Shown: positions 28,165 to 59,827, counted from the first letter of the stretch. The stretch is 64,000 bases of DNA from an uncultured Alphaproteobacteria bacterium (GCA_964625525.1 CAZVEE010000008.1:1764-65763); one strand, 5' to 3'. Notes: generated by a model from the sequence alone, not told the origin. Numbers and translations are program-made.

Positions 28165-28632
28165 TCAAGCCGAGCTGGCTCATGTAGACTGGCCTCTATT
28201 GTCTGGCGGCAGTACCTCCTTTGCGACGTGTAAGGAGGGTGCAAATCCGGTAAGCCTGTGACTGATCTCGCACGGTGTTTTCGGAATGGAAATGCGCGAG
28301 ATCCAAAGCCACAGGCGCTGTTGATTTGTGACCAGTCTTCACGGAAGATCTGCGCTCGCAACGGTTGGATACTATACATCCGACGGTCTGGTACACGGGC
28401 GGTCTGGCTGGCATGGTTAATGCCCCACCACAGGGCAACGTCTATGCTTGTCCCGTTTTGGGGCGCGTCTGTCTGTGTCCTGGGACTTTGCCGCATGAGG
28501 CCCGGGTCACGCCGTAATGTTTGAGTTCGGGTGAGGGGAGTAGCAGCCATCGTTCGCATGGGCTCAAGCTCGCGCCGGCGCCGCCGTCTTCGGGACGGCG
28601 GTTCGGGCGTTGAGCCGCGCAGCGCTCGTTCC

Positions 28633-36300: not shown

Positions 36301-36526
36301 GCCGAATGAAGCTTTCTTGCTCAATGGCTGCGTGGTGTCGGTGGGCTGTTTGCAGCTTGATCGCTCAACGATCGTCTTGCGCAGCTTCGAGATCGTGAAC
36401 CAACCGTTCGAGGCCGATGAGGCGAATGCGGAATTGCGCTTCTCCGATCTCGGCAATTTCGAAATCTTCCGCCGGCTGGGCATCATCAATATCTGGGCCG
36501 ATCAAGAGGACGAGGATGAGGACTGA
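30368..36526 (+). CDS. filamentous-hemagglutinin-type TpsA exoprotein (2052 aa)
   Basis: N-terminal TPS secretion domain (IIDWDSFDIEAGETTRFVQPGADAVVLNRVTGGGGLSSILGTLEANGQVFLINPAGVLIGNGATVNV). About 1800 aa of G/A/T/V/L-rich beta-helix-like sequence. Starts 11 nt after the tpsB stop. Confidence 0.9.
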   Translation: MDMTARSSKRRRARRATWMGALRHGASVAVLASLTALPVLANPSGGTIPEGGGAGEIVDIDPSTVEVRQDSQRLIIDWDSFDIEAGETTRFVQPGADAVVLNRVTGGGGLSSILGTLEANGQVFLINPAGVLIGNGATVNVHSFVATTADISNQNFLDGELIFNTPSAALGAAIVNEGTISVAEAGLAALVGPSVRNSGVVAARLGRTVLAGAETFTLDLTGDNLISFEVPSDGFVPMVAQEGTINVDGGIVYMTAQTAAGIIDTVISMEGVVEARSVGLENGEVVLYGGPGGTVAVTGSIDATGDDGGETGGRIAVSGARVVLDDAVLDASGAAGGGDIAVGGRFVDAGPGDEPVVTEAQDVVFDAGSTVAADATVAGRGGSVTLTATDMVTSDGTGSVTGPDGGGSVLLDAGGALDVDGAWDTGPDATFTVRADVVGVNAGGVDPAIVAQVLAEGGDVTVASASDVFLSVGFGTGTATDAGNLTVTAVERVVIAPGVTIELTGGDLALSGAAIDMGAGSGLTVTNGVLSLDVLGDVSIGTLTVIQEGAGAASLALSSGGFIDALDADNPSLVFEGAVDVALSGIGIGVGAPLRMDAGPDGGTLNLTTLAGAGGGVQAILTAGSAFDSVAVNLADASHGVDIVLPLGDRVLVTPGLGVSTLSNVTLTAAGSDFAFALTEAGGIVRVASGTVTSPGDVSLSALGDLIIGTGPGVAIAMTGVNGLLTLESGGSILSSSGLIDVGLGGRLSFEATGDAGRRDAPLLLTGATQVAGTAGGDIALRLNGPGVLGIGEAGGRSGLTATAGAITLGADDVAIAQAITAATTVSLATVSPGTVFTVGGADGESGLTAAELALIAADLLEIAASGGTLSVAGAGDVDLSAAAFDVTLSADTILFNDAGTLTLAPDAVARLAGVSILGGGTRSDLAAANGALLIDASGAVVLSTALAQIAGTSGSLILENAGALSVGTVDGVEGLTTDQGASLTAQGGALTLERIVTTGGETGLAADGDVRFGTEGGLDAQTHDEAVSIVSAAGALALEDGTFALAGNTLLLRAGLAIAAVIQGTADKTVTLAGDAATGDLNVTLADGALAIGTIGDTAGLSVPQGSIALITDSLDIGAPVAAETSILIAALSADTEFALASAAPGLALSQAEARLLETLGTVTLRAGSAAAMRLSDDTVLDLTPVDWSALSLQAATILAGGSLLTDGTALDVAAPVVLTRTVIFDTAAAGSAGADLFVAGPVAVAPGGPFGISALAGTAGAVTFNGAVGTVDAPLAAFTASGERIAAQDIIARGPVSLVGLSGVTLGGDGDGLSVIAQGDALSVSGPLALLEEALLSTATAAGLGGPIGLDAVTLNGFGLTLDAGTDGAITATSVSGGAGRTGLLDIARADSVVVAETLTLDRLRLQDLTTLAQVSGAFNLNALEIAASPAQVRFFGGGTVVDFVGPLNTGGLTLGGGGTYDFVTGLQALASPVILDASVRAGGAGLVVADVTLTGDTALTTADGGPITLGVVTADGQALSLDAGATGAVTVARVLNGMDGAPRGAFTLVNAGSAIIDGPLRASAVAFQPGQGSVIVTGGLEADSVTVAAQPFTLALLDGARVRDAVAFQNLSGLTLGDAMTDVFAFDGGFSAPNAVTRLAGTVQTIDAPITVGTVVLDANTVLSTVGPSGGSAIRIGGPVTGGGMVGQGLSVIGGTAGSILLEGDVGADGTITAAAFEAAAISVQDIFTRDGVIFVARNPDGSAGIVTLNSRYETGGGDLVVDANVRFTGDLIIDTTDGGLVQSGTVTLGQDGAAIDPLSSDSVVSVIAGETVRIGGVLTEDAGSLDRFTISAASGVEIAGGVFGDALIVESGAFNGDPTAIANQDISITGPLLVAGTADFSATGSILINDTFTAQTANLWAINDVTVRAPLTAAVLQLELDGIAETTGDGFLTITDSFLIGSLTEGQGRSDLKGEIRGVRSDDAALFGRQLSERPNEAFLLNGCVVSVGCLQLDRSTIVLRSFEIVNQPFEADEANAELRFSDLGNFEIFRRLGIINIWADQEDEDED

Positions 36527-39500
36527 GGGCGTGCGCACAACAGCATGGGGGATCCTGCGGGCGCTCACGGTCGGGCTCGTTGGCTTGGTGGCCGCATGCG
36601 CGACGCCGCCCGGCCTGCTGTCGGCGGATTTCGACGGCACCATTACGCGCCCCGACCTGATCGTGACATCTGTGGGGCGCAATGCCATCGGCGAGACCTG
36701 CCGGCTGAAGGCCGATCCGGACGCGGCGCGGGTGAGCGGCGAGACTCACTATGTCATTCAGTGTGGGGAGTGGGAGACGCCGAGCGCCACGATCGTGCAA
36801 GTCGCGGCCGGGACGCCCAGCGGCCCGGGCTCCGACCTTTGGGCGCGCGCCATCGCGATCGACTTGGATTGCGGCGAGCCGAGCGCGCTTGGCTTTCAGG
36901 GCATGGGCCCCTCGCGCCGCTATGACTGCCGGCTGAAGACAGGCGGCTGGACCATGACCGCCTTTGAGGGCGAGGCGGGCGGCGCGCGCTATGTGGGGCG
37001 CAGCATTCCGGTCTCTCTGGGGCCGGTGGAGCGAGCCATTGGTTTTCTGTCGGGTCGCTTGAGCGCGGCCCAGGCGGGCGGCGAGGATGCTGCGCGCGGT
37101 GAGCGCACCCGCGCGATCGCCGAGCTGGAAGCGGAACTGGGCGGGCGGACTTATACGGCCGGCGATATCGAAAGCTATGACAAGCTGCTCGATGTGGCGT
37201 CTTATTATAACAGCATTGGGAATTATCCGGTCTCGGAGAAATATTACCGCGATGCGCTGGATGTGCTTCAGCGCAATTTGGATGCCGATGATCCGGCGCT
37301 GGCTGATCCATTGATGCGGTTGGGGCTGGCGCTGAGCAGCCAGGGCAATTTCCGCGACGCCGATGAGGTATTCGCCCGCGCCGAGCGTCTGGCGGCGGCG
37401 GATATTGACCCGCTGAGCAGCCTGCGTCTTCAGATCTATCAATCCATGCATCTGGCGCATCAGCAGCGTTGCGCTGAAGCCTTGGCGATTTTGGAGCCAG
37501 CGCAACGCGCATTGGCGGCGCTGGCCAACCGGGAAGCGGGCGGCGGGGAAGCGGTCCTGCGCACCGGGTCTTCGGCGGGGGCCGGTGTGGAGTTCGCGCT
37601 CAGTTTGGGCTTTGAAGCCGCGTTGCATTTGTGCCTGAACAGTCTGACGCGGGCGGAGAACACAGTGGACCGGGCCATGGCGGAACTCTCCCGCCTGACC
37701 GCGACACCACAGGAATGGCGCTGGGTGTTCGCCTCGTTGCGCGCTGAAATTCTGCGCCGCCAACGCATCTATGCGGGCGGGCGCCAGGAACTCACGACGA
37801 CCATCGCGGAGCGGCGCCGGGTGCTTGATCCCTCGCGCCCCGAAGCCATCGATCTCCTGGCCTTGGGTCAGATCCAGGCCCAGGAAAACCGGCCCGAGGC
37901 GGCCATGGAAGCCTATGAGCGCGGTCTGGCTATTGTGCGCGAGAACAATGACGGCCTCAGCCTTGATCAGGTGTTGCCCTATCTGAAAGTGCTCTACACC
38001 CAGGCCGAGGAAAACCCAGATGATGCGCGCGAGAACAGCCTAAAGCTGTTCGATGCGGCCCAGATCGTGCGGGATTCCGTCACCGCCCAGACGATTTCGC
38101 AAATGGCCGCGCAACTGGCCAGCGGTGACGCGGAAGTGGCGGTGCTGGCGCGGGAATTATTCGAGCTGCGCCGTGACATCAACGACTTGAACTTGTCCAT
38201 TGACCGGGCATTGGCGCGCCCCGACGCTCAGGCTCGGCTGGACGAAATCGACGCCATGCAGGACCGGCGCGACGACTTGCGTGAAGAGCGGGCCCGCATC
38301 GACCAGACGCTGCAAAGTGCGGCGCCCCGCTTTAACCAGCTCATGATGGAACCGGTGGCGACCGAGCGCGTGATGGACGCGCTGGGCCCGGACGAAGCCA
38401 TGATCCAGATCCTGCTGGGTGAGCAGGAAAGTGTGTCGATCCTCATCACCCGTGACGGGATCACGCCAGTTTTCCGCTCTCTTGGTGCTGATGAGGTGGG
38501 CGATGCGGTGCTGCGCTTGCGCCAGGGCTTGGTGATTGACCGGGAGCAGCGGCTTGGCTCTTTCGATACCGATCTGGCGCATGCGGTCTATAACGCCTTT
38601 ATCGAACCGTTCGAAGCTCAGCTTGCCGACAAACGCCATCTGATCATGGTGCCTTCGGGGCCGCTATTGAGCCTGCCGCTCGGGGTCCTGGTGCGCGAGC
38701 CGGCTGTTGTGCGGCGTGAGGATTATCGGGACGTGGCGTGGCTGGCGCGGGATTTCGCCATCAGCATCGTGCCGTCGCCGCGCAATCTGGTGGATCTGCG
38801 CTCCACCGTGCGCCCCAGCGTGGCGCCAGAGCCGTTTATCGGCTATGGCGATTTCCAACCGGTGTTCGATCGCGAACCGGTGGACGGCGACAGTTGCGCC
38901 GCGCGCCTGTACCGGGCCGTGCGCAATGCCCAACGGTTACCGGAGACGGGGCAGGAGCTTTTGGATGTGGCACGGGCGCTCGGGGCGTCGGCACGGTCGG
39001 TGCGGCTGGGGCGCTCCTTCACCGAAGCCGCAGTGCGGCGCGAGGCTTTGGACCGCTACCGGATCGTGTATTTCGCGACCCACGGCTTTATGCCGGCCGG
39101 AGACAATTGCCTCAACGAACCGGCGCTTCTGGCCACGCCGGGCTTGAGCGAAGCGGGGGAGGCGGATAATGGCCTCTTGCGCCTGAGCGATGTGGTGTCG
39201 TTGAACCTTGATGCGGATATGGTGGTGTTGTCGGCGTGTAACACGGGCGGGGGCGATGGCACGGGCGGGGAAGCACTCAGTGGCCTGGCCCGCGGCTTTT
39301 TCTACAGTGGGGCCCGCTCGCTGCTGGTGTCGCATTGGTATGTGGAAAGTGCGGCATCGCGGGATCTGATGACAACGCTGTTCTATCTTCAGCGTTCAAA
39401 CACGACACTGGGGTCTGCCGAGGCTATGCGCCGGGCGCGCCAGTCTCTCATGGTCAGCGAAGACGGTCCGTACACAGCCTATCGCTCTCATCCAACCTTC

Positions 39501-39554
39501 TGGGCCGGGTTCACTATCATCGGTGACGGCGCGCGGCCTGTGTCGGTGCGCTAA
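36516..39554 (+). CDS. lipoprotein TPR-repeat CHAT-domain (caspase-like) protease
   Basis: The ATG at 36516 overlaps the tpsA 3' end by 11 nt. Lipobox LVAAC. Central TPR-like helices. C-terminal CHAT domain with His (YFATHGF, codon at 39081) and Cys (VVLSACNTGG, codon at 39237). Confidence 0.85.
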   Translation: MRTEGVRTTAWGILRALTVGLVGLVAACATPPGLLSADFDGTITRPDLIVTSVGRNAIGETCRLKADPDAARVSGETHYVIQCGEWETPSATIVQVAAGTPSGPGSDLWARAIAIDLDCGEPSALGFQGMGPSRRYDCRLKTGGWTMTAFEGEAGGARYVGRSIPVSLGPVERAIGFLSGRLSAAQAGGEDAARGERTRAIAELEAELGGRTYTAGDIESYDKLLDVASYYNSIGNYPVSEKYYRDALDVLQRNLDADDPALADPLMRLGLALSSQGNFRDADEVFARAERLAAADIDPLSSLRLQIYQSMHLAHQQRCAEALAILEPAQRALAALANREAGGGEAVLRTGSSAGAGVEFALSLGFEAALHLCLNSLTRAENTVDRAMAELSRLTATPQEWRWVFASLRAEILRRQRIYAGGRQELTTTIAERRRVLDPSRPEAIDLLALGQIQAQENRPEAAMEAYERGLAIVRENNDGLSLDQVLPYLKVLYTQAEENPDDARENSLKLFDAAQIVRDSVTAQTISQMAAQLASGDAEVAVLARELFELRRDINDLNLSIDRALARPDAQARLDEIDAMQDRRDDLREERARIDQTLQSAAPRFNQLMMEPVATERVMDALGPDEAMIQILLGEQESVSILITRDGITPVFRSLGADEVGDAVLRLRQGLVIDREQRLGSFDTDLAHAVYNAFIEPFEAQLADKRHLIMVPSGPLLSLPLGVLVREPAVVRREDYRDVAWLARDFAISIVPSPRNLVDLRSTVRPSVAPEPFIGYGDFQPVFDREPVDGDSCAARLYRAVRNAQRLPETGQELLDVARALGASARSVRLGRSFTEAAVRREALDRYRIVYFATHGFMPAGDNCLNEPALLATPGLSEAGEADNGLLRLSDVVSLNLDADMVVLSACNTGGGDGTGGEALSGLARGFFYSGARSLLVSHWYVESAASRDLMTTLFYLQRSNTTLGSAEAMRRARQSLMVSEDGPYTAYRSHPTFWAGFTIIGDGARPVSVR

Positions 39555-39559
39555 TACTC

Positions 39560-41596
39560 TTACTTGGTGACAACGGAAATCGTGCGGCCGGTTTCACCGG
39601 CACGGGCGCGCTCCAGGTGGAACTGGATCAGGCCGTCCTGGGGCAGGCGCTTGGCAAGGATTTCGAAGTGCTCATGGGCGCGCTGGGCATCACCTTGTGC
39701 CAAGGCGGCAAAGCCCTTTTCGTAAGTCTCCAGCAACACCGCCGCCGGCGAGCCCGGATCGAGAGGCTCGTAGGTGGGGATGGGCTGAGTCTTGCCCGGT
39801 AGGATCAGATCACCGACGGACCGGAACAGAAGGCCGGGCGTGCGGGCGCGGGTGTCTTCACTGACCAGAATATTCGTGCGCACCGTTTTGTTCGCCGCTT
39901 CCAGTCGCGCGCACGTGTTCACCGCATCGCCAATGGCCGTGTAATCAAAGCGGTCATGTCCGCCGAAATTGCCGACCACGGGATCGCCTGTGTGAACGCC
40001 GATCCGGGTGCGCCCAAGCATACGGCCTTCCCGGCGTTTCTCGGCGCGGAAGCGTTCGGAATAAGCGTGGATTTCCAAGGCGCACGCGACGGCCCGTTCT
40101 GCGTGGTCTTCAGAGGGCTCAGGCGCGCCAAAAAAGCTCATGGATCCGTCGCCTAAAAACTTATCGAGCGTCCCGCCATGGGCGAGAATGATGCGCCCCA
40201 CATTATCGAGATAGGGCGAGAAGAAATCCTGCAAGTCGTTGGGTTCCATGCTCTCCGCGATACTGGTGAAGCCTTCCAGGTCGGTGAACATCAGCGTGAT
40301 GGTCTCGCGATGCCCGCCCAGTTCCAGGCGCGAGGGATCCCGCTCTAACCGCGAGACGATGGCGGGGGGCACATATTTGGCGAAGGCGGAGCGGATCATC
40401 GCCCGTTGGTTTCGGTCCTCGCGGCCCGCATACACGATGGTGATGAACGCCGCAGCGGCGAACCCGAAGGTCGGTGCCATCACCGGCATCATCAGCCCGC
40501 CCATGTTGAACATGAGGCCCGATCCTAATGTCAGGGTCAGGAGCACCGCCACCGACATCAGGATCTTGCCCCACATGGGAATGCCCAGGACCGCGATCCA
40601 AATCGCCAGGCCACAGACCACCAGCGCCAGCAGGACCTCCATGAAAAAGCTGAACTCGTCCTGGGTCCGCCCGTCCATGATTTGCGCCAGAATATGGGCA
40701 TGGACGATCACTCCGGGCATGCGTTGGGCGTATTTGCTTTCGCTGGGCACGACGGCAAGCGGTGTGCGGTGGAAGTCGATATCCGACATCACGGGCCCGA
40801 TCAGGGCGATTTTGCCCTCCAGCCAGGCGGCCGGCAGGCTGCGCACCGTGTGGGCGTCATACATCTTGAACGCTTCCACATAGGTCTCGCCCTCGGCCAT
40901 GGTGGGCACACCGTGCCAGTCGATCCGCTGTTGGCGCACTTGGGGCACTTCATGGCCCAGCGCATGCGCGATGGCGGCGGCGAACTGGTAGCGGATGGGG
41001 CTGGTTTCGTTCCAGACCGGGTAGTGGTGACGCACGGTGCCGTCAAATGTGTTGCGCCGCAGATAGCCGTAGCCCGTGGGCCGGTCGCCGATGAACGAGC
41101 GCAGGATCGCCGCGCGTTTTGCGGTTGTGCCCAGCGCCTCGTCCCATGTGATGGGGATAATCTCGGTGCGTGCTTCCCGGATCGCCCGGCGCAAGTTTTC
41201 GTCCTTGCCCTCGTCGGTTTCTGTATCCAGGGCAAAGTCCACGCCGATCGCGCGCACGCCCGCATCGTCAAGCGCCCGAATGGTGCGCGCCAAAAAGCCC
41301 CGGTCGAGCGGCACCCGGTAGCGCAGGGTGTCGAGCGTCTCTTCGGTCACCCCGATGATCACGATGTCCTGGTTCTGCGCCATGGTGGGCGACGCGAGGG
41401 CGACACGCAGATCGCGGGTGTATTCCTCAATGCTGGTGAAAAACTGCCACCGCGGCAACAAGAGGGTCAGTATCACCGCCACTACAAAGCCAAACGCCAG
41501 CCAATGCAGCGCATAAGGTGCCGCGCGCGCACGCGTCGGGCTCTGCGAACCCGGTGCGGCCTCGACCGGCGGCGAAAGTGCAGCGTCATCCGACAT
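39560..41596 (-). CDS. CHASE2 sensor domain-containing class III adenylate/guanylate cyclase
   Basis: N-terminal TM helix, a periplasmic CHASE2-like region and a TM cluster, then the cyclase core (TLMFTDLEGFTSIAE ... GDGSMSFFGAP ... IGVHTGDPVVGNFG ... DYTAIGDAVNTCARLE). Confidence 0.9.
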   Translation of the reverse strand: MSDDAALSPPVEAAPGSQSPTRARAAPYALHWLAFGFVVAVILTLLLPRWQFFTSIEEYTRDLRVALASPTMAQNQDIVIIGVTEETLDTLRYRVPLDRGFLARTIRALDDAGVRAIGVDFALDTETDEGKDENLRRAIREARTEIIPITWDEALGTTAKRAAILRSFIGDRPTGYGYLRRNTFDGTVRHHYPVWNETSPIRYQFAAAIAHALGHEVPQVRQQRIDWHGVPTMAEGETYVEAFKMYDAHTVRSLPAAWLEGKIALIGPVMSDIDFHRTPLAVVPSESKYAQRMPGVIVHAHILAQIMDGRTQDEFSFFMEVLLALVVCGLAIWIAVLGIPMWGKILMSVAVLLTLTLGSGLMFNMGGLMMPVMAPTFGFAAAAFITIVYAGREDRNQRAMIRSAFAKYVPPAIVSRLERDPSRLELGGHRETITLMFTDLEGFTSIAESMEPNDLQDFFSPYLDNVGRIILAHGGTLDKFLGDGSMSFFGAPEPSEDHAERAVACALEIHAYSERFRAEKRREGRMLGRTRIGVHTGDPVVGNFGGHDRFDYTAIGDAVNTCARLEAANKTVRTNILVSEDTRARTPGLLFRSVGDLILPGKTQPIPTYEPLDPGSPAAVLLETYEKGFAALAQGDAQRAHEHFEILAKRLPQDGLIQFHLERARAGETGRTISVVTK

Positions 41597-50427: not shown

Positions 50428-51102
50428 TTAAGGCTGGGTGCTGGCCGGCGTGGTGTCTTCGCGCACGCAACTAACGGCGGCAATGCGGTGGCAGAACTTA
50501 CCGTCGCACAGGAAGCCGTCGCCAAGGGTGCGGGTGGGCGGCGCGTTGCGCTCCACCCGGAAATCGACCGCGCGGGTGAACCCTTCGGCCTGGCAATAGG
50601 CGGTGGCGGCGGGCCAGCCGCAATCGCGACCGTTCTTGTGACACAGGTCGAGGCCCATCGCCGCCGTCTGTGTCTGGTTCTGCGTTTCCGGCGCCCGCGT
50701 TTGGTCGGATGCGGCGCTGTCGGCGATGCCCGATTCGGGCTCCGGCTCCGGCACCGTCTGCGGCGCCACTGTCAGAGCCGTCACCGGGGCCAGCACGTCA
50801 TAGTCCTTCACCCCGGACACGCAGCATTCGCTCGACCAAGACGGGGTGACGCTTTCTTTAAGCCAGCAGCGGGCCTTGTTCCCCTGAAAGCCCGGCTTAA
50901 CGTAGGAATAGGCCATGCAACGAGGGTCTTCGAGGCAGGCCTGCTGACAGCTTTGGGCGCTGGGCGGCTCGATCTTGAGGACTTCATAGGCCGCGCCCGG
51001 GCGCTCCACGCCCTCGACCATAGTGATGGCATGCGCGGACGGGCCTGCCAGGGCGAGGCCGAACACAGCCAGAAGGCTAAAGACCAAACGGCGAAGCGGC
51101 AT
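50428..51102 (-). CDS. secreted PAN/Apple-domain protein with a second Cys-rich domain
   Basis: Signal peptide MPLRRLVFSLLAVFGLALAGPSAHA. The PAN-like block is SAQSCQQACLEDPRCMAYSYVKPGFQGNKARCWLKES. The C-terminal half has 6 Cys. Confidence 0.7.
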   Translation of the reverse strand: MPLRRLVFSLLAVFGLALAGPSAHAITMVEGVERPGAAYEVLKIEPPSAQSCQQACLEDPRCMAYSYVKPGFQGNKARCWLKESVTPSWSSECCVSGVKDYDVLAPVTALTVAPQTVPEPEPESGIADSAASDQTRAPETQNQTQTAAMGLDLCHKNGRDCGWPAATAYCQAEGFTRAVDFRVERNAPPTRTLGDGFLCDGKFCHRIAAVSCVREDTTPASTQP

Positions 51103-51464: not shown

Positions 51465-53243
51465 ATGAGCGTGACGCGGCGTACCGGAGCGCGCCATGCG
51501 TTTCGGGTCGCATCGCTGGCGGTACTGGTTTGGTGCCTCGGCTTGGCCGAGCCCGACGGGCCACGGCCGGCATATGCCCAGGACAGCGCGGCTCAGGACA
51601 GCGCGGCCCAGGACAGCGCGGCCCAGGATGGCGCGGCGCAGGACGGTGGCGCGGACGACACTCTCTCCGCCGACGAGCGCATGCGCCAGCTCGAACAGAG
51701 CATCGAGGCGCAGCAGCGCCGCCTGCTGGATCAGGAACGGGTGCTGTTTGAACAAGACCAGCAACTGCGCCAGCAGTTTCAGACCCTCCAGAATCAGGCC
51801 GACGTCATTGAGGGTCAGCAAGATCTGATCGACGAGCAACGCGACGAGTTGCTGCGCGTGCGGACCCAGCTGCGCACGTCGACACCACCGCCGGCCGCGC
51901 CGCCCCAGCGCGTGGAAGGCACGGTGCCGCGCACGCCGCCGCCGGAAACCGGTGTCCGCTCGCCCCAGGAATTGGAACGCGCGGAAGCCCTGCGCCGGGC
52001 CCGTGTGGAACAACTGCGCCGCCGCCTGGAACAGCAGCGGCAGCAACAGCAACAACAGCAGGCCGGCCAAGCCGCCGGCGCGGCCGCGGGCGCGGCCGGC
52101 GCCGCCCAAGCCCGGCCGGCCCAGGGCGTGCAACCGGCGCAACCAGATTCCCGCGCCGCCGAAATCGCGCGCGAACGGGCCCGGCGCGAGGCGGAGCTCT
52201 ACCGCCAGCGTTTGCAGCAGCAACAACAACAGCAGCAGCAAGCCGGGCAGGCCGGACAACCTGGTCAGCCCGGGCAAGCCGTTGCCCCGGCCTCCGACCC
52301 GGCCGCCATCGACAATCAGCCGACCGCCACACGGCCGCGCACCGACCGGCCGCCGGACGTTGAGGCCTTGCCCGCGCGGGCCGGCGTGCTGACGCCGAAA
52401 GGCAATGTCGCGCTCGATCTCAGCTATACCTACGTCTATTCGGACGTGAACCGGGTGGAAGTGGCGGGTTTTAGCGTGTTGCCGGCGGTGCTGATCGGCT
52501 CCTTCGACATCATCGAAATCGACCGGCAGAACAACACCTTCTCTGTGACCGGACGCTATGGGCTGACCGACCGGATCGAGGTCGAAGCGCGCGTGCCCTT
52601 CATTCAGCGCACCGACGACACGACCGGGCGCCCGGTGGGCGAAGAGGCCAATGACGACCAGTTCTCCACTTTGGCCGGGTCGGGCATCGGGGATATGGAA
52701 CTGGGCCTGCGCTATCAGTTGAACGGCGGACAGCGGGGCTGGCCGTTCTTTATCTACAATCTGCGCGCGCGTGCCCCCACGGGCCGCTCGCCCTTCGACA
52801 TTGAGTTGAGTGACAGTGGCCTGCCTCAGGAATTGTCCACGGGCTCAGGCTTTTGGAGCCTGACACCGGGGATTTCCATGGTGTATCCGACGGATCCGGG
52901 GGTGTTCTTCGGCTCGATCAGTTACACCTATAATTTCCGCAAGCGGTTTGAGGAGGCCGGCACCATCAAGCCCGGCGATACCTTGTCCGCGAGCCTGGGT
53001 CTGGGCTTTTCGATCAATCCGAAAGTGTCGTTCAGTGTGGGGACGGATTACTCCATCACCTACCGCACCCGGCAGAACAGCACCCCGGTGCTGGGCTCCA
53101 CGCCGCTTTACGCGGGGCGCTTGTCGCTGAGCTACTCCTATCGCTTCACGCCAAAGGTGTCGGCCACCTTCTCTGTGGCACCGGGCTTCACGTCGGACGC
53201 GCCGGACCTGACCATGGGCCTGCGGGTGCCGATCCGCTTCTAA
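51465..53243 (+). CDS. outer-membrane beta-barrel protein with a long N-terminal coiled-coil / low-complexity extension
   Basis: Signal peptide, then AQDSA repeats, then a heptad-like region (ERMRQLEQSIEAQQRRLLDQERVLFEQDQQLRQQFQTLQNQADVIEGQQDLIDEQRDELLRVRTQL) and a P/A/Q-rich linker with poly-Q. An amphipathic-strand barrel of about 290 aa ends ...GLRVPIRF (terminal Phe). Confidence 0.75.
   Translation: MSVTRRTGARHAFRVASLAVLVWCLGLAEPDGPRPAYAQDSAAQDSAAQDSAAQDGAAQDGGADDTLSADERMRQLEQSIEAQQRRLLDQERVLFEQDQQLRQQFQTLQNQADVIEGQQDLIDEQRDELLRVRTQLRTSTPPPAAPPQRVEGTVPRTPPPETGVRSPQELERAEALRRARVEQLRRRLEQQRQQQQQQQAGQAAGAAAGAAGAAQARPAQGVQPAQPDSRAAEIARERARREAELYRQRLQQQQQQQQQAGQAGQPGQPGQAVAPASDPAAIDNQPTATRPRTDRPPDVEALPARAGVLTPKGNVALDLSYTYVYSDVNRVEVAGFSVLPAVLIGSFDIIEIDRQNNTFSVTGRYGLTDRIEVEARVPFIQRTDDTTGRPVGEEANDDQFSTLAGSGIGDMELGLRYQLNGGQRGWPFFIYNLRARAPTGRSPFDIELSDSGLPQELSTGSGFWSLTPGISMVYPTDPGVFFGSISYTYNFRKRFEEAGTIKPGDTLSASLGLGFSINPKVSFSVGTDYSITYRTRQNSTPVLGSTPLYAGRLSLSYSYRFTPKVSATFSVAPGFTSDAPDLTMGLRVPIRF
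51577..51651 (+). repeat. 15-nt tandem repeat CCCAGGACAGCGCGG, about 5 progressively degenerate copies
   Basis: Units start at 51577, 51592, 51607, 51622 and 51637. They encode AQDSAAQDSAAQDSAAQDGAAQDGG. Confidence 0.85.
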
Positions 53244-53266: not shown

Positions 53267-54490
53267 ATGAGCACACGGGACAGGAGGGATCCGCACCCGC
53301 CCGTGCTTGCGCCGGGGACGGTCTTCCTCGTGTTTCTGGGGCTGGGGCTGACCTCGTTTGGCGGACCGGTGGCTCATCTCGGCTATTTCCGTGAGGCCTT
53401 TGTCGTGCGCCGCGGCTGGTTGAGCGAGCGCGCCTATGCCGATCTGGTGGCGCTGTGCCAGGCCCTGCCGGGGCCCGCGTCGAGCCAAGTCAGTATGGGG
53501 ATCGGCCTCAGCGTTGCGGGACTGCCGGGGCTGTTTGCGGCTTGGCTCGGGTTTAGCTTGCCATCGGCTGTGCTGCTGACCGCTGTCGGCTATGGGGTCA
53601 TCGCGGACCGGGACCTGCTGGCACCTGGGGTGCTCGCGGGATTGGGCATCGGCGTGGTGGCGGTGGTGGCGCATGCCCTGTGGGGCATGGCCCGCACGTT
53701 GACGCCCGATGCGCCGCGTCTGGCATTGGCCGCGCTTGCGGGTCTTGTGGTGCTGGTCTGGCCGGGGCCGTGGGGCCAGGTGCTGGTGCTGATCGCGGGC
53801 GGGGTGATGGGGTTTCTCGTGCTTTGCGAGCCCACGAGTCCCCCCCAGCAGGCGGGACCGGCCCTGGCGGTTCCCGTGCTGTCCTGGGTGCCGCCCCTGG
53901 CGCTTGGATTGTTTGTCCTGCTGCTGCTGGGTCTGCCGCTGCTGACGGTGTTGATGCCTGAGACAGAGGCGCTGGCGCTGGGAGACAGCTTCTATCGCGC
54001 CGGGGCGCTGGTGTTTGGGGGCGGGCATGTGGTGCTGCCCCTGTTACAGGCGGAAGTGGTCGCGCCCGGCTGGATCGCCGAGGCGGAGTTCCTGGCCGGT
54101 TATGGCGCGGCCCAGGCCGTGCCCGGCCCGGTCTTTACTGTTGCCGCTTATTTGGGCGCGGCGATGGAGATCGGGCCTGGAGGCGTTGGGGGCGCGGCGC
54201 TCTGTGTGGTGGCGATTTTCTTGCCGTCTTTGTTGCTGGTGACAGGGGTGCTGCCGGTTTGGGCCCGGGTGAGCGCGGTGCCAGGGTTGCGCCGCGGCCT
54301 GGCGGGTGTCAACGCGGCTGTCGTGGGGCTGTTATGGGCTACGCTGATCACGCCGATAGGCACCAGTGCGATCCAGGCGCCAGCGGACGCTGCCTTGGCG
54401 CTTGTCGGCGTCGCGTTGTTGCTGACGGGACGGGTGCCGGGATGGGCGGTCGTGGTGATGACGGCGCTGGCGGGCTGGATGATCGCTTAG
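53267..54490 (+). CDS. chrA: chromate efflux transporter
   Basis: Duplicated CHR domains: FLGLGLTSFGGPVAHLGYFREAFVVRRGWLSE...LCQALPGPASSQ and LVFGGGHVVLPLLQAEVV...GYGAAQAVPGPVF. Confidence 0.9.
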   Translation: MSTRDRRDPHPPVLAPGTVFLVFLGLGLTSFGGPVAHLGYFREAFVVRRGWLSERAYADLVALCQALPGPASSQVSMGIGLSVAGLPGLFAAWLGFSLPSAVLLTAVGYGVIADRDLLAPGVLAGLGIGVVAVVAHALWGMARTLTPDAPRLALAALAGLVVLVWPGPWGQVLVLIAGGVMGFLVLCEPTSPPQQAGPALAVPVLSWVPPLALGLFVLLLLGLPLLTVLMPETEALALGDSFYRAGALVFGGGHVVLPLLQAEVVAPGWIAEAEFLAGYGAAQAVPGPVFTVAAYLGAAMEIGPGGVGGAALCVVAIFLPSLLLVTGVLPVWARVSAVPGLRRGLAGVNAAVVGLLWATLITPIGTSAIQAPADAALALVGVALLLTGRVPGWAVVVMTALAGWMIA

Positions 54491-55008
54491 GGCCCGGCGT
54501 TCTGGTCGATCACGTCACGGAACAAAGCGCGTGAGACCGGGTCATAGCCCTGAATGGTGATCTCACCATCAATAAGCTGCTGGATCAGCGTATCGGGCTT
54601 AGTGTTCTGCACCACCGTCACATAGTTGGTGATCTGATCATAGACTTCCGGCGAGATGGTGTTGCCATCGCCGAGTTGGATCACACTGCCGGCGGCTGAG
54701 TTGGCGAGCGAATTCACCACATCGGAGGAAATCACCGAGCGAGCCTCGGTAACGCCGTCCACCATGGTGGTCATCTCAATGGCGAAATCGACCATATAGC
54801 CGCTCGATAGCAACACCCCACCGCGCACATCCTTGAGGATGTCGTCATCCACCTGGGGGCTCCACAGATAGGGACGCTCGGCCGCGAAGCCGCCGCCAAA
54901 GCCAGTTTCGTTGTCCTGCGCGCCCGCAGGCAGCCCAAGGCTCGCCAGCACCAGCGTGATGGCGCAGGCGCAGCGGGCGAAACGGGTGAGGGCGCGGGAC
55001 AGGGCCAT
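54487..55008 (-). CDS. small secreted protein, fourth gene of the QQNNG-repeat cluster
   Basis: Signal peptide MALSRALTRFARCACAITLVLASLGLPAGA. GFGGGF follows directly after it. It has a degenerate copy of the cluster repeat (VVNSLANSAAGSVIQLGDGNTIS). The start lies 2 nt after the C39 gene stop. Confidence 0.65.
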   Translation of the reverse strand: MALSRALTRFARCACAITLVLASLGLPAGAQDNETGFGGGFAAERPYLWSPQVDDDILKDVRGGVLLSSGYMVDFAIEMTTMVDGVTEARSVISSDVVNSLANSAAGSVIQLGDGNTISPEVYDQITNYVTVVQNTKPDTLIQQLIDGEITIQGYDPVSRALFRDVIDQNAGP

Positions 55009-55010
55009 GA

Positions 55011-55886
55011 TTACTGAACACTCTGGAAGACGAAATCGTCCGGCGTGCGCTGGAAGATATCCCGCACCGAGAGGATGTCGTGCTCCTTGAACGCATTCGT
55101 CCCCGGGGCGGCGCTGGTGACCCGGTACTGTGCCGAGGTATCAAAGCTCATACGCCCGATCGAGGGTTGATCCAGGATCACAAAAGCGATGTCGTTGGCC
55201 CGCATGCGCTCAAATTCAGCGCGAGAATACTTGCCGATGCCAAGCGCCGGATCGCCCACCAGGACTTCTTCGTCATTGATGCCTTTGATGACCACAAAGT
55301 GGAAGTAACCACGCAGATTGATGAGCTGGATCGCTGGCACGCCCTCGCGCTGCAACTCGTCCAGTGTCACCGAAAAGCCGTTGGCGCGCAGGCCCCGGGC
55401 CTCCAAATAGCGTTTCAGGTCGAGGAGCGAGAAGCCCTGGGCCTTGATCTTATCCGGGTCGCCGACCGCGAACATGGCCTTGAAGACTTCTTCCTCCGTC
55501 GTCTCAACGCCGTAATGATAGGTCAACAGCGTCGCAACCGCCGCGGCTCCGCAGCTGAAATCATATTCCTGCGGGACAATATTCTGAAATTTCTGAGTCA
55601 GAACGCTTGAGGTTTCGACCATCACCTGGCCGCCGCCGGGAAGCGTGATGGGCACTTGCGTCCGCACTGAGACAGTGCGAATGGGGCGCGGCAGGATGAC
55701 ATCGTCCGGCGAGACCGGCGAGGGGGCCAATCCTGGGATCGAGGTTTGCGGCGTTAATTGTCCTGACAACGCCATGCCGGGCATGGGCGCCGTCTGGCAG
55801 CCAGCCAACAGAAACGCGGCGCACACAGCACCTAAGACACCCCGTTGGGGGCCGACCCACTGACTTTGAAAAAGACTGATCATCAT
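55011..55886 (-). CDS. standalone lipoprotein C39-like cysteine peptidase
   Basis: Lipobox AAFLLAGC. Catalytic block QEYDFSCGAAAVATLLTYHYG (Gln/Cys). His/Asp block GYFHFVVIKGINDEEVLVGDPA. No fused ABC transporter domains. Start ATG at 55886 or 55883. Confidence 0.85.
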   Translation of the reverse strand: MMISLFQSQWVGPQRGVLGAVCAAFLLAGCQTAPMPGMALSGQLTPQTSIPGLAPSPVSPDDVILPRPIRTVSVRTQVPITLPGGGQVMVETSSVLTQKFQNIVPQEYDFSCGAAAVATLLTYHYGVETTEEEVFKAMFAVGDPDKIKAQGFSLLDLKRYLEARGLRANGFSVTLDELQREGVPAIQLINLRGYFHFVVIKGINDEEVLVGDPALGIGKYSRAEFERMRANDIAFVILDQPSIGRMSFDTSAQYRVTSAAPGTNAFKEHDILSVRDIFQRTPDDFVFQSVQ

Positions 55887-55967
55887 ATGCCGCAACCTTC
55901 TGGCTGCCTGACCCGGCCCGGGCGGCACCCGAGCCGGTTCGACGCCGGGTTCACCACGCGGCGCCGA

Positions 55968-56696
55968 TCAATTGCCGATGTTCACAGTGACGTTCATCTG
56001 CGTTTCGATCACGACGTTGTTCGCCGCGTTCTGAATGATCGTCACAGCCCCCTGCGCGCCCTGAAGCGCACCGTTATCAATCACGTTGGAAGGGGTGAAG
56101 TCCCCACCGATGAAGGTGGAATTGTTGTTCACGGAGCCCGCAGCCGTGATCAGCGTGCGAATGGCTTCATCATCCGGACCCGGCGCCATACCGCGCACAT
56201 TGTCCAAGACCGCCACATCCGTCCCGCCAAGGCCGTCAAACGCCAGATCTTCACCGAGCGGACCGTTGGCAGACGCCACCGCATCCACAAGATCCTCACC
56301 GATCATCGGGGCGAGAGAGCGCGATAAGCCCGCATACTCAAACTTGAGCGATAAAAACACGCTCGCCTTGCTGGTCGGCTTTGCCACGCTACGCACGGAG
56401 GCCGGCGCCCGCACTGGCAACACGGGAAGAGCCACACGCGGCTGCGTTGGCGCATCCGTGACCGGGCCCCCAAATGCCTTCGACGCACCGAAGGCCGAGC
56501 CGCCGAAAGCGCTCGCGCTGCCGAAACCGGAGGAGGCGCCGGCGAAAGATGTTTCAAACCCACTGGCGAGAGCGGCTGAACTCGTGCTCATCAGGCACGC
56601 AGCCCCAATCATCGACGCGCCAAACAGCGAAGGCAGCGTCCGCAGCGTTTTGAAGAACCCGTGCATCACCGACGGGTGCCGGAGAGCGCTCATCAT
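55968..56696 (-). CDS. secreted FG-rich protein carrying one C-terminal copy of the cluster repeat
   Basis: ATG at 56696 with GGAG 8 nt upstream. Signal peptide ...LFGASMIGAACLMSTSSAALA. Then SGFETSFAGASSGFGSASAFGGSAFGASKAFGGP. The C-terminus NVIDNGALQGAQGAVTIIQNAANNVVIETQ aligns with the repeats of the 670-aa protein. Confidence 0.7.
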   Translation of the reverse strand: MMSALRHPSVMHGFFKTLRTLPSLFGASMIGAACLMSTSSAALASGFETSFAGASSGFGSASAFGGSAFGASKAFGGPVTDAPTQPRVALPVLPVRAPASVRSVAKPTSKASVFLSLKFEYAGLSRSLAPMIGEDLVDAVASANGPLGEDLAFDGLGGTDVAVLDNVRGMAPGPDDEAIRTLITAAGSVNNNSTFIGGDFTPSNVIDNGALQGAQGAVTIIQNAANNVVIETQMNVTVNIGN

Positions 56697-56829
56697 GGAC
56701 AGGCTCCAAACCCTAAATACAGACTTCGGACAATCCGAAGGTCGGCCGAGACTATGTGTGATTCCCTGGCACCATACCAGCGTCCCACGTCCCCACTTAG
56801 CCGAAGGCCCTGCTAAGCCGTTGGTATAT

Positions 56830-56860
56830 GGTGACGGGCCGGAGCCCGCCACCTTTTTTT
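56830..56860. terminator. GC hairpin with a T7 tract on the + strand / A7 tract on the - strand, just downstream of the 670-aa gene
   Basis: GGTGACGGGC cgga GCCCGCCACC (9 of 10 bp paired) followed by TTTTTTT on the + strand. On the coding (-) strand the run is A7 before the hairpin, so it is canonical only for antisense transcription. Confidence 0.45.
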
Positions 56861-56881
56861 GACCAATCGTTCACGTTGTCC

Positions 56882-58894
56882 TTAGAAGGACGCGGCGCCC
56901 GACAGAGCCGAACCAACGCCGGTGACGGAGATCGCAACAGCGGAGTTCATCACGTTGGACGAACCGTTGTTTTGCGAAACATTCGCCACACCGGTGAAGC
57001 CGCCGCCCAGACCGTTGAACGAACCGGTGATCGTGTTGTCGATCGGGTCGTCCGTCAGAGCAACGACCAGGTTCCGAGCCACGGTCCCTTCCAGCGTCAC
57101 GTTGTTGGTGCCGCCTTTCTCACCGAAGATCGGAGAGTCCTCCTGCAGGCCAGCGTTGATCGCGATGACCTGGTTCATGGAGCTGGCGTGACCGTTGTTC
57201 TGCTGGATGTTCGCAGCACCGGCGAAGTCGGTGAAGGAATCCTGGATCAGGTTGCCGCGAACCACACCAAACTCATAGACTTGGTTGTAGACCGCGAGAC
57301 CCGCCGCATTCGCGGACGCCAGCAGCTGAGAGTCGTCTTCCACACCCAGGCGAACCGCAACTTGCGTGGTCTGGCCGAGCGTGTTGGCCATACCGTTGTT
57401 CTGCTGGATGCTGACGAGACCCGTCACCGTCTGGAAGGAGTTCTCGATCAGGTTCGACTTCTCGGTGTGCAGATCCGGGAACTCGTAGCTGCTCAGAGCG
57501 AACGAGCTGCCATAGGTGTCGGCGACGAACTGCTCGATCGGATCAACGAAGCCAGCGGCCGTGTCGATCTCTTCGCCATTGTCGTCGAACTGCGGCAGGA
57601 TCAGGCCGGGCAGGGAAGCAATCTCTTTGGAGATGTCCCAGTCACCGTCCCACACGGAGGTGCCGACAGTCACGCCGGTCGAGTTCACCGCCGTGGAGGT
57701 GTCACCACCACCAACGCCATTGTTCGCCAGGTCGCCCGGCACCGTGTCGACGGCGGCCAGGTTGTTGGCGAGGATCTGAGTCGACTGACCCAGGGCGTTG
57801 TGGTTGCCGTTGTTCTGCTGGATCTGGAAGGAACCAGCGGCGTTGTCGAACGCGCCGTTGTCGATGGTGTTGTCATACAGCGTGTTGACGTCCACCAGGG
57901 CGTTCACCGGGAACGAGCTCCCGAAGATCGCGGACGGATCGGAGTCGGCAAAAGCTTCAGCCAGTTCGTCGAAGGTTTCGAACGGTTCACCGTCGGTGTC
58001 GAACTGCGTCACTTCATCAGGAGCGCGGCTGACCGGGAACGCGTTCAGCAGACGGCCACCGTCACGGACGTAGTTGTTCACGCCGCCGGACTGACCCTGG
58101 GCGCCGAGCTGGCGACCCTGGTTGGCAAACACGGCCTGGGACTGACCCATGGTGTTCGCGTCACCGTTGTTCTGCTGCACGTTGGCAACACCCGAGAAGC
58201 TCTCGAACGCGGCGCCATTGGCGTCGTCCGGAGTGGTGTCGGTCAACAGGTTCTGACGATCCGGCGCTTTGGTGCCGAAGTCCACGTTCACGGCCGGAAC
58301 GGCGGTGCCGTCTTGGCGACGCGCAACACCGTCGGAGTCCAGGAACAGGACGGTTTCGTTACCGTCGGCGTCCAGGACCGGGTTGCCCTCGTCATCGACT
58401 TCAACGATCGGGCGGTACAGGCCAAAATTGAACGCCTGGTTGTTGCGCGTGCGGTTGAAGGTGCTCTCCCACTCAGACAGCGTGCCGAAGCCCGTGCCCG
58501 GAGCGCGAGTGCCCACAAAAGCGCCCGTGGAAACGTCATTGGTGTGGGCGAGATCGTCGCCACCAATGGTCGTTTCACCGGTGCCAACACCCGTCACCAC
58601 GCCGGTCGCGGCGTTCAGGACGTTGTTGGAACCGTTGTTCTGCTGCGCGTTCACCGCGCCCTCAGCACCGGCACCCGGCGCGGAGAAGGTGAACGAGTTG
58701 TCGATCAGGTTCACCCGGACGGTCTGAATATCGAGGCTCAGGGTCTCGATAACATCACCGAAAGAATTCACCTGGGCGCCGGATTCTTCATACGTCGGAA
58801 GATCCGGAAGTTTAGTCGGGCCCTGGAACGCGTAGGCCGGGGCTGCGCCCAAGGCCAGCACGGACGTGCCGATAATCAAGCTGCGTTTCAACAT
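56882..58894 (-). CDS. secreted 670-aa protein with six QQNNG-core repeats (putative fibre/adhesin major subunit)
   Basis: Signal peptide MLKRSLIIGTSVLALGAAPAYA. Six copies of N-x-I-[DE]-N-[SG]-F...G...[IV]-Q-Q-N-N-G-x-x-N...Q, with cores at aa 84, 240, 359, 497, 564 and 640. Ends ...GAASF. The antisense 767-aa ORF was rejected. Confidence 0.8.
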   Translation of the reverse strand: MLKRSLIIGTSVLALGAAPAYAFQGPTKLPDLPTYEESGAQVNSFGDVIETLSLDIQTVRVNLIDNSFTFSAPGAGAEGAVNAQQNNGSNNVLNAATGVVTGVGTGETTIGGDDLAHTNDVSTGAFVGTRAPGTGFGTLSEWESTFNRTRNNQAFNFGLYRPIVEVDDEGNPVLDADGNETVLFLDSDGVARRQDGTAVPAVNVDFGTKAPDRQNLLTDTTPDDANGAAFESFSGVANVQQNNGDANTMGQSQAVFANQGRQLGAQGQSGGVNNYVRDGGRLLNAFPVSRAPDEVTQFDTDGEPFETFDELAEAFADSDPSAIFGSSFPVNALVDVNTLYDNTIDNGAFDNAAGSFQIQQNNGNHNALGQSTQILANNLAAVDTVPGDLANNGVGGGDTSTAVNSTGVTVGTSVWDGDWDISKEIASLPGLILPQFDDNGEEIDTAAGFVDPIEQFVADTYGSSFALSSYEFPDLHTEKSNLIENSFQTVTGLVSIQQNNGMANTLGQTTQVAVRLGVEDDSQLLASANAAGLAVYNQVYEFGVVRGNLIQDSFTDFAGAANIQQNNGHASSMNQVIAINAGLQEDSPIFGEKGGTNNVTLEGTVARNLVVALTDDPIDNTITGSFNGLGGGFTGVANVSQNNGSSNVMNSAVAISVTGVGSALSGAASF

Positions 58895-59783
58895 CGCTCA
58901 GTCCTCAGTCAGTTGGTCGATGAGATGTCGCGTCATGCGAACCTGACCCTCGTGAGCAGTCGAGGATCGGGCTGCGTAAAGCTCTCAGCCTCGCGCTTGA
59001 GACCAGCCGCCGGTCGCCCGACGGGTCCGGAAACCAGACCAGACGTTTTCAGCGGGGAAAGGCATGGCGGGTCGCCACTCTCGGACGAGAACCCAAGTGC
59101 CCATAGACGAAGCGCGATTCGTGATTTGTGAAAAGGAAGAAAGATCAGATTGGAGACGATAATGCCCCCGGTCTACTCCATCCCTTCTCACCGAAAACGC
59201 CCCGTCGGTAAGACGGCCTCTTACCATGTCACTCCCCGCGTCTGACGACGCAGGCCTTTACACACACAAGTCAGTAGCCACGCACTCAGTACCCTCAATC
59301 CGTTCCGGACCCGTTAACCGTCTCCGAGGAAACAGCCTCCGTGCACGGAGGGCGGGTGAGGGGCAGCCGAGTTCTCCGGACAAACGCCGACATACTCGGT
59401 TACGTGTGAGTGATTACGCCGTTTCTCTGAACGAGTAAACAAGGATCTGCTCGCCAATCCGGACAATTTCGCCCAAATGACCCAGCGTGCCGACCAGCGG
59501 TCACTCCGCTTGGAGTAATCCGAAAGTGAGACTGTGTGACGAATGACCGTTACAAACCTGATAACTCAAGCGTTTTCACAGCAGAACCGCACGAAACCTA
59601 CACTTTTCGGCTTTTTCTTTTGTTCTAAAATGGAGCGTCGTGCCGTGTCCTCTTTGGAAACGGCAACTTGTTTTATTCTGAGACCTTTAAGGTGCAACCG
59701 ATCCTATATGCCCGCATCTAGGGCGTGATCGATGGCCTTTGACAGGAACGGCACAGTCTGATTCGGCCATGGCGCGGGTGTGT

Positions 59784-59808
59784 CCCGCGGCGTGAAACAC
59801 GCCGCGGG
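59784..59808 (-). terminator. hairpin 20 nt downstream of the M14 peptidase stop
   Basis: Perfect 11-bp stem CCCGCGGCGTG aaa CACGCCGCGGG. No clear U-tract. Confidence 0.45.
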
Positions 59809-59827
59809 GGATCTTGAGCGGACTCGA

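Follow-up and report, generated by a model that had tools for sequence, protein, structure and literature searches.

A cluster of four minus-strand genes at 54487-58894 of the 64,000-nucleotide (nt) stretch CAZVEE010000008.1:1764-65763 (the window; all window coordinates are positions in this stretch), together with a channel gene on the opposite strand, probably encodes a divergent Fap-type system that secretes and assembles a surface fibre built from repeats. The original prediction, made from the sequence alone, was of a Fap-like fibre system with a new repeat. Its core held, as the locus encodes a FapD-like C39 peptidase, a FapF-like channel, a FapE-like protein of 173 amino acids (aa) and two repeat proteins distantly related to FapB and FapC; the new spacing of the repeat and the supposed absence of FapF did not hold. 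The repeat subtype of this locus is rare, was found in Alphaproteobacteria and belongs to a sister family of Fap that is large and unannotated.

56882-58894, minus: FapC-like major subunit gene (670 aa; open reading frame (ORF) call)
55968-56696, minus: FapB-like minor subunit gene (242 aa from the ATG at 56696; a 294-aa ORF reaches 56852)
55011-55886, minus: FapD-like C39 peptidase gene (291 aa from the ATG at 55886; a 305-aa ORF reaches 55928)
54487-55008, minus: FapE-like gene (173 aa; ORF call)
51465-53243, plus: FapF-like outer-membrane channel gene (592 aa; profile and PDB sequence matches)
53267-54490, plus: chrA chromate transporter gene, outside the system
50428-51102, minus: gene of a secreted PAN_4-domain protein, adjoining the channel gene
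56724-56740, minus: terminator-like hairpin in the 185-nt gap past the major-subunit gene (consensus scan, weak evidence)

The four minus-strand genes are co-directional and, with the ATG starts at 56696 and 55886, separated by gaps of 185, 81 and 2 nt, as had been described. The parallel drawn between fapC-fapD-fapE and the order major subunit, peptidase, small subunit was only partly right, the real order being C-B-D-E with an inverted F. ORF calling and the NCBIfam scan revealed no FapA-like gene among the cluster proteins, in agreement with the prediction.

Peptidase, double-glycine leader and channel

The peptidase had been described as a lipoprotein not fused to an ABC exporter, and this was borne out by a lipobox (LLAGC), by a Cys/His/Asp triad that is invariant in the alignment (Cys126, His210 and Asp226 in the numbering of the 305-aa ORF) and by the lack of an ABC domain. 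No transmembrane or ATPase domains were present in the protein of 291-305 aa, and ABC-transporter models matched its residues 125-251 only. The protein matched Pfam Peptidase_C39 (5e-19), NCBIfam FapD (1.7e-45) and FilB (8e-33). Judged by these profiles it is FapD-like, that is, a relative of FapD and not an orthologue in NCBI's sense.

The gene of the 173-aa protein occupies a conserved position after the C39 gene. Its product had been credited with a degenerate copy of the repeat; a C-terminal module does exist, but the quoted segment NSLANSAAGSVIQLGDGN was wrong and the matching one is ITNYVTVVQNTKPDTLIQQLIDGEITIQ, picked by its match to the C-terminal motif conserved across E-like proteins. 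In family-level hhalign comparisons the E C-terminus matched the B repeat with a probability of 95.5 %, and the C-terminal modules of the proteins labelled A (the major subunit), B and E were mutually homologous. The FapE-like protein has a Sec signal, a propeptide with the leader ILKDVRGG preceding V (G63-G64; leader DNA 54817-55008; cleavage region VDDDILKDVRGG before the site and VLLSSGYMVDFAIE after it) and a C-terminal repeat-like module ending in YVTVVQNTKPDTLIQQLIDGEITIQ. An E-family hidden Markov model (HMM) built from 72 E-like proteins matched Aeromonas FapE as a single target with 18.5 bits and E=9e-8 (hhalign P=3e-4), the match running through ELAHLRGRY…FGIE. The NCBIfam FapE model missed the window protein, and two E-like relatives at E<=1.

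A signal peptide followed by a propeptide ending in V-[SD]-D-x-E-L-x-x-[LM]-R-G-G was found in 76 of 89 E-like candidates, the next residue usually being Phe. Counted back from the predicted cleavage site, hydrophobic residues occupy positions -4, -7 and -12 of this leader, with Glu at -8 and Gly-Gly at -2 and -1. Such a pattern is the classical double-glycine leader recognised by C39 peptidases. In Pseudomonas the catalytic Cys of FapD is needed for secretion and, among the Fap proteins, FapE alone undergoes full N-terminal processing; the target of FapD was called unclear because the Pseudomonas Fap proteins are without canonical C39 sites (Rouse 2017, PMC5557850). The leader of the FapE-like protein supplies such a canonical site and is the predicted substrate of the periplasmic C39 enzyme. 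The RGG of the E-like proteins and the looser D..L....G[GRQ] motif of the small B-like proteins and Acinetobacter FilA suggest what periplasmic FapD-type C39 peptidases may cleave. Since the FapE-like protein carries a textbook double-glycine leader, the protease step is directly testable, and the predicted cleavage site is the most useful result of the analysis.

It had also been stated that no FapF-like gene lies next to the cluster. This was an error, as the plus-strand gene at 51465-53243 encodes a protein whose residues 301-592 matched the FapF crystal-structure sequence (PDB 5o67) with E=9.3e-36. The 592-aa protein matched NCBIfam FapF (1.2e-44), FilC (4e-16) and Pfam Phenol_MetA_deg (1.4e-10), and, from a signal peptide and a coiled-coil-like N-terminus (judged by eye), it runs through a long linker rich in Q, A and P to a C-terminal beta-barrel, whose PTG motif reads APTGRSP; the FapF plug helix and FF motif were not identified in it. 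On these matches the channel, too, is a relative of FapF and not an orthologue in NCBI's sense. The homology to FapD and FapF and the synteny of the genes are demonstrated.

The chrA gene is flanked by the genes of the FapE-like protein and the FapF-like channel; it shares the strand of the channel gene and lies 24 nt downstream of it. In the closest relative, locus L001, whose major subunit is 53 % identical, there is no chrA at that position and the convergent FapF-like gene directly adjoins the cluster, beginning 560 nt from the end of the C39 gene; a PAN_4 protein then follows. The PAN_4 protein flanks the FapF-like gene in the window and in L001 (16485-17087; 52 % identity) and was missing from the more distant loci compared by blastp. 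Since its gene is a conserved neighbour only in the closest relative, its membership in the system is uncertain.

The opposite orientation of the channel gene, the intervening chrA and the match to Phenol_MetA_deg would fit a set of functionally unrelated neighbours, with the C39 enzyme serving some other double-glycine peptide and the channel acting as a COG4313/Phenol_MetA_deg-type uptake channel. However, the FapF-specific model far outscores the generic family, the double-glycine leader is located in the adjacent E protein, the channel gene directly adjoins the cluster in L001, and a C39 gene and a FapF-like gene lie within a few kb of each other in 72 of 80 loci from several phyla. This explanation is largely refuted by synteny and is considered highly improbable.

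Relation of the QQNNG repeat to the Fap repeat

The 670-aa major subunit has a Sec signal ending in AYA before F. The six repeats ascribed to it were confirmed, with [QS]QNNG at residues 84, 240, 359, 497, 564 and 640 and thus at very unequal spacing. The repeat units are imperfect, about 41 aa long and separated by linkers of very unequal length:

Repeat 1: residues 63-103, DNA 58586-58708, minus
Repeat 2: residues 219-259, DNA 58118-58240, minus
Repeat 3: residues 338-378, DNA 57761-57883, minus
Repeat 4: residues 476-516, DNA 57347-57469, minus
Repeat 5: residues 543-583, DNA 57146-57268, minus
Repeat 6: residues 619-659, DNA 56918-57040, minus

QQNNG occurs five times in this protein; of 20000 shuffles that preserved the composition, only 44 contained one or more copies. 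An alignment of 25 homologues shows the motif columns to be invariant, and homologues of the protein carry 5-16 repeat copies. The two closest are 50-53 % identical over 99 % of the protein, so the similarity reaches past the repeats. An exact look-up of the protein in public assemblies returned no record, and neither the protein nor a profile of 59 repeats matched any PDB sequence at E<=10.

The single C-terminal repeat copy noticed earlier in the 242-aa protein was supported by family-level hhalign to the major-subunit repeat (probability 96 %, E=2e-9); it reads NVIDNGALQGAQGAVTIIQNAANNVVIETQMNVTVNIGN and is encoded at about 55971-56090. This FapB-like protein has a Sec signal and an N-terminal VLDNVRGM motif, and the B-like proteins of other loci show a loose leader-like motif, [DE].L...[RSA]G[GR]. 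It is encoded after the major subunit, whereas fapB precedes fapC in Fap. A single-repeat FapB is known from Vibrio (Dueholm 2013, PMC3792158).

The spacing of the repeat had been thought to differ from that of FapC. It does not, since the G-x8-G skeleton is kept and the Aeromonas FapC repeat TIDGGAFNGAVGNIGVNVSSGTNNLQANNLSLAA aligns with the window repeat TIDNGAFDNAAGSFQIQQNNGNHNALGQSTQILA without gaps. The minimal Fap repeat has been published as X15-G-X4-N-X3-G-X6-N-X7 (PMC3792158). The window repeat is G-x4-Q-x3-G preceded by N.I..xF..A, where Fap has G-x4-N-x3-G; the N-terminal half of the Fap repeat is retained and Gln stands in place of Asn at +5. Alignment by hhalign of the QQNNG repeats with canonical Fap repeats (a set of 8, then a set of 91) gave the same register (columns 10-37 to 10-37, P=0.004); CsgA control repeats gave P=0.1-0.4, the range over the A, B and E modules being P=0.08-0.4.

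Intermediate repeats, for example GIVMVNQNAGNMNQTAN and GVMQSNQNVGDNSLLQN, occur in the weaker matches of the VQQNNG profile, and the following bridging proteins were found:

P0244: VQQNNG profile 2.3e-8; FapC 3.5e-15, FapB 1.9e-14
P0260: VQQNNG profile 4.2e-6; FapB 8.5e-16
P0268: VQQNNG profile 1.9e-5; canonical repeat HMM 7e-10

Since these proteins are matched by the QQNNG profile as well as by the models of FapB and FapC, the QQNNG repeat is, on sequence evidence, a divergent Fap imperfect repeat and not a repeat of new spacing. The window repeat proteins accordingly rank, by a homology that is transitive via the bridging proteins, as distant relatives of FapB and FapC. Precomputed matches to Pfam FapBC (PF27129) exist for four homologues of the 670-aa protein; the only one with a reported strength, in a tandem paralogue beside P0005, is faint. 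Scans of the A, B and E proteins and typical relatives with Pfam-A and NCBIfam gave no meaningful family, the Pfam-A copy scanned being without PF27129 and leaving Aeromonas FapC unmatched too.

The richness of the repeats in Q, N and G also recalls a curli-type or Acinetobacter Fil-type system. A Q-x-G-x-G-N stretch in E-like proteins resembles curlin, and the FilB and FilC models match the C39 enzyme and the channel. These scores are, however, much weaker than those of FapD and FapF, FilA is without such a repeat, the scanned proteins of the cluster and its flanks gave no match to CsgE/F/G, and the hhalign values against CsgA repeats given above also speak against curli. Such a system is the least credible of the alternatives.

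An exhaustive HMMER search with the VQQNNG profile against 1.84 billion representatives gave 166 proteins at E<=1e-3. Multi-repeat QQNNG subunits are rare, and the named hosts of multi-repeat QQNNG proteins are all alphaproteobacterial. Repeat number in the family ranges from 2 to 42 among the HMMER matches and from 5 to 42 in full-length relatives. Some members of the family sit away from secretion genes. A contig of JGI 3300072015 carries three tandem paralogues of 1138-1143 aa, the first confirmed with 16 repeats, which adjoin sialic-acid (NeuB) and radical-SAM genes and have no C39 gene within 10 kb.

Distribution of the system and its proposed function

When GTDB species, each represented by one genome, were scanned with a C39 alignment, a related standalone C39 peptidase was confirmed in at least 595 genomes; the counts out of 80 loci given here refer to the best 80 of these relatives. 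These loci were found via C39 alone. Of the 80, 72 have a FapF-like ORF in the flank, usually after one intervening ORF, and in about 67 (HMM detection) C39 is directly preceded by a small single-repeat ORF. The synteny of the C39 gene with repeat proteins also occurs in other genomes. Nearly always the gene directly upstream of C39 encodes a secreted protein of 107-180 aa, which ends in N.I..GAF.NASGI.TVIQNSGNNVLIQNSTIVNV, and the FapE-like protein usual directly downstream ends in TVIQN.LDNQ.IQ..T.INA.V. The order major subunit-B-D-E with a convergent F recurs in relatives. In distant loci the set persists, with genes of a repeat protein and a small protein, the C39 gene, a gene of one other protein and, convergent to them, that of an outer-membrane protein. 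A gene of a sigma-54-dependent activator adjoins the FapF-like gene in L003 (15573-16793) and L005 (18241-19641). RefSeq labels such genes 'hypothetical protein', 'C39 family peptidase' or 'transporter'.

The best 80 loci come from Alphaproteobacteria (Rhodospirillales, Paracoccaceae, Sneathiellales, Caulobacteraceae, Sphingomonadales, Kiloniellaceae), Betaproteobacteria (Massilia, Nitrosomonas, Dechloromonas), Gammaproteobacteria (Marinobacter, Ectothiorhodospira, Lysobacter, Acidithiobacillus), Nitrospira, one acidobacterial metagenome-assembled genome (MAG) and one Chloroflexota MAG. The alphaproteobacterial loci examined have cargo with 6-21 VQQNNG repeats, and among loci with a named host this subtype is restricted to Alphaproteobacteria. 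Acidithiobacillus cargo has at least 4 repeats. Cargo in most Beta- and Gammaproteobacteria is a protein of 270-750 aa, rich in Gly, Ala, Ser and Asn, with a single C-terminal repeat. The alphaproteobacterial host proposed for the window is in line with its GlpK, whose named top matches are all from this class (Indioceanicola, Kiloniellaceae, Pelagibius, Parvibaculum); with a best non-self identity of 77 %, these matches indicate a novel alphaproteobacterium.

Low-complexity cargo genes were also recorded at L007 4303-5838, L036 6271-8370 and L072 6900-8312, and in L052, L085 and L090. In Cupriavidus, Massilia, Pseudoxanthomonas, Rhodanobacter and others, the cargo of the C39/FapF module has 320-730 aa and is extremely rich in Gly, Ala, Ser and Asn. 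This cargo ends in one conserved module, AGTFDMSN.MS.VGQSAAGIMV.AQNSG..SLIQQSVNVQANL.VGP. A decayed copy of the system is present in L008 (9848-14637), on a 136-kb plasmid of Vibrio sp. SCSIO 43009: the FapF-like gene is without the coiled coil, the Asn/Ser/Asp-rich cargo is seemingly frameshifted and the C39 gene is split, while the B-like and E-like genes are intact and phage-like genes adjoin the region.

We infer cleavage, export and polymerisation, as well as fibre or amyloid formation. The signal peptides suggest that all five proteins would cross the inner membrane via Sec. The lipoprotein C39 enzyme would then cut the double-glycine leader of the FapE-like protein after RGG, as the motif and the findings on Pseudomonas suggest (Rouse 2017, PMC5557850), and the small FapB-like protein, with its related RG[M/G] motif, may be cut as well. 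Such processing would license secretion, as FapD activity does in Pseudomonas, and the FapF-like barrel with its periplasmic coiled coil would, by homology, export the unfolded subunits. Once exported, B with its single repeat and E may serve as anchor or nucleator, the six repeats of the major subunit could stack with one cross-beta layer per repeat as in FapC, and its long variable linkers would be displayed as loops.

AlphaFold2 modelling of the full 670-aa protein with the 25-sequence alignment gave a predicted TM-score (pTM) of 0.61 and a mean predicted local distance difference test (pLDDT) of 49. About three strands per repeat had pLDDT 60-82, the repeats being all-beta and the linkers disordered; the last 196 residues modelled alone gave pLDDT 54. 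Foldseek returned only beta-solenoid-class proteins for the full model, all above E=0.05, and for the C-terminal model FapC 9u4u as the top match (E=1.4e-3, TM ~0.1), followed by SufD, ice-binding proteins, CsgA and bactofilin. The models are consistent with a stacked beta-solenoid and provide no evidence for the Greek-key fold of FapC.

Alternatively, the product may leave through Fap-like export machinery and be a self-contained six-layer beta-solenoid adhesin or surface coat, not an amyloid polymer. Stacking onto the single repeats in B and E would keep it attached to the cell, the repeat being mainly a secretion or anchoring module. Additional strands that the AlphaFold2 model shows between repeats 4 to 6 hint at one continuous folded unit, the 50-53 % identity to the closest homologues extends beyond the repeats, and most sister-locus cargoes are the low-complexity proteins of 270-750 aa with one C-terminal repeat, which cannot form a solenoid alone. 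On the other hand, the repeats are homologous to those of FapB and FapC, which polymerise, the 2-42 repeats in homologues are a range typical of open-ended stacking modules, and a minor single-repeat subunit suits the role of nucleator. An adhesin or coat of this kind is the main alternative but is regarded as unlikely, and the fibre-assembly system as the probable function.

Several observations weigh against assigning this fibre-assembly function. The FapD score of 155 bits is far under the equivalog cut-off of 330 (the FilB score is likewise under its cut-off), and the FapF score of 153 bits is far under 700. Direct hhalign of the QQNNG repeats to the Fap repeats (8, then 91) gave a probability of only 8-24 %, so the repeat homology rests on the bridging sequences; with the repeat profile, neither a FapC of the PDB (E<=10) nor, directly, any canonical FapC was reached. 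NCBIfam models of FapB, FapC and FapE match the Aeromonas controls and miss the window proteins and the window-type relatives tested. The genes run C-B-D-E, with fapF inverted and split off by chrA and with no fapA. The window B protein reads RGM, not RGG, and has one repeat where FapB has three; the major subunit has six versus three in FapC. Both AlphaFold2 models are of low confidence (pLDDT 49 and 54), and neither gave a Foldseek match at E<=0.001, the TM-scores being ~0.1.

A broader and more tentative view, possible but rather doubtful, is that the FapD/FapE/FapF trio forms the core of a widespread general outer-membrane secretion-and-anchoring pathway that goes beyond amyloid. A portable C-terminal module of about 35-40 aa (…GAF..A.G…φIQN.GNN…IQ…) would target varied cargoes to the channel, the C39 enzyme would act as the switch that starts the pathway, taking the double-glycine leader off the FapE-like protein, and the cargoes, from Gly-rich low-complexity proteins to arrays of 2-42 repeats, would stack onto the B and E anchors. 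If so, the alphaproteobacterial QQNNG proteins and classical FapC would be two specialised outcomes.

Around the cluster, the hairpin at 56724-56740 may be an attenuator. A sigma-54 promoter search upstream of the major-subunit gene gave no match, no sigma-54 activator gene was present in the cluster flanks examined, and no Rfam family was found anywhere in the window. Upstream of the major-subunit gene, 58895-59827 is an unusually long (~930 bp), comparatively AT-rich intergenic region with no annotated feature. Elsewhere the window encodes a pair of two-partner secretion proteins, namely a TpsB of the ShlB/FhaC type (28531-30357) and a TpsA of 2052 aa with a TPS domain (30368-36526), past which lie a TPR and CHAT protein (36417-39554) and a convergent CHASE2-adenylate/guanylate cyclase (39560-41596).

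Novelty and comparison with known systems

Fap has been described as limited to Beta-, Gamma- and Deltaproteobacteria, with FapD and FapF belonging to larger families (Dueholm 2013, PMC3792158), and co-localised fapD and fapF homologues were reported in five more phyla (Rouse 2018, PMC6173800). The suggestion that the window holds an undescribed system is thus correct only in part: Fap variants were already known (PMC3792158, PMC6173800), and the alphaproteobacterial QQNNG subtype is new. The literature searched yielded no paper that treats FapC, 'functional amyloid' and Alphaproteobacteria together, and on Fap-like, FapF-like and Fil systems it contained no description of this sister family. 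The locus reveals a much broader Fap sister family that reaches Alphaproteobacteria. Three repeats have been termed 'almost universal' (PMC12822426), and 2025 surveys stress the same; the natural variation in repeat number could serve for comparison in work on its effect on amyloid assembly.

The curli, Fil, bacteriocin-ABC and unrelated-neighbour readings were rejected on profiles, repeat tests, domain content and synteny. C39 domains of bacteriocin exporters (PDB 6mpz, 4ry2) share the peptidase fold, the triad and the predicted substrate motif ELxxφxGG with the window system. Unlike in those exporters, there is no ABC transporter, the Sec-exported lipoprotein peptidase would act in the periplasm on a Sec-exported protein, and the leader follows a signal peptide instead of forming the N-terminus. 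Acinetobacter baumannii Fil (filA-F) likewise pairs a standalone C39 with a FapF-like channel, and the N-terminal D..L....GQDG motif of FilA resembles the leader-like motif of the B-like proteins. However, FilA has no Fap-type repeat, FilD, FilE and FilF have no counterparts here, and no FilE or FilF homologues were seen at the window cluster.

The closest counterpart is the Fap system of Pseudomonas and Aeromonas (fapABCDEF; Dueholm 2010 and 2013, Rouse 2017; FapC fibril structures 9nqd and 9u4u). Both have a standalone periplasmic C39 with a catalytic triad and a FapF-type barrel that bears a PTG motif and whose N-terminal region is coiled-coil-like. The FapE-like protein would correspond to FapE, with the N-terminal motifs EL..LRG[GR] and FGIE in common, and the subunits would correspond to those of Fap in their imperfect repeats of ~39-41 aa with a G-x8-G skeleton, an N.I..xAF..A.G half and variable linkers. 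In contrast to Fap, the second half of the window repeat is VQQNNGxxN (VNVAAGxNNQQxN in Fap), the C39 enzyme is a lipoprotein, the host is alphaproteobacterial, there is no single fapABCDEF or fapBCDEF operon in the window, and all window proteins are under the NCBIfam equivalog cut-offs or unmatched.

Acidithiobacillus and Vibrio systems with 4-16 FapC repeats, a FapB of 1-2 repeats and a detached fapF have been treated as Fap variants (Dueholm 2013, PMC3792158). The Acidithiobacillus ferriphilus locus L088, which falls within the same C39 family, has a B-like protein ending in VIQNSGNNVLIQN and a major protein with at least 4 repeats. The window system resembles these variants in a major subunit that exceeds three repeats, a single-repeat minor subunit and a detached fapF, and differs from them in its host, theirs being Gammaproteobacteria or Acidithiobacillia.

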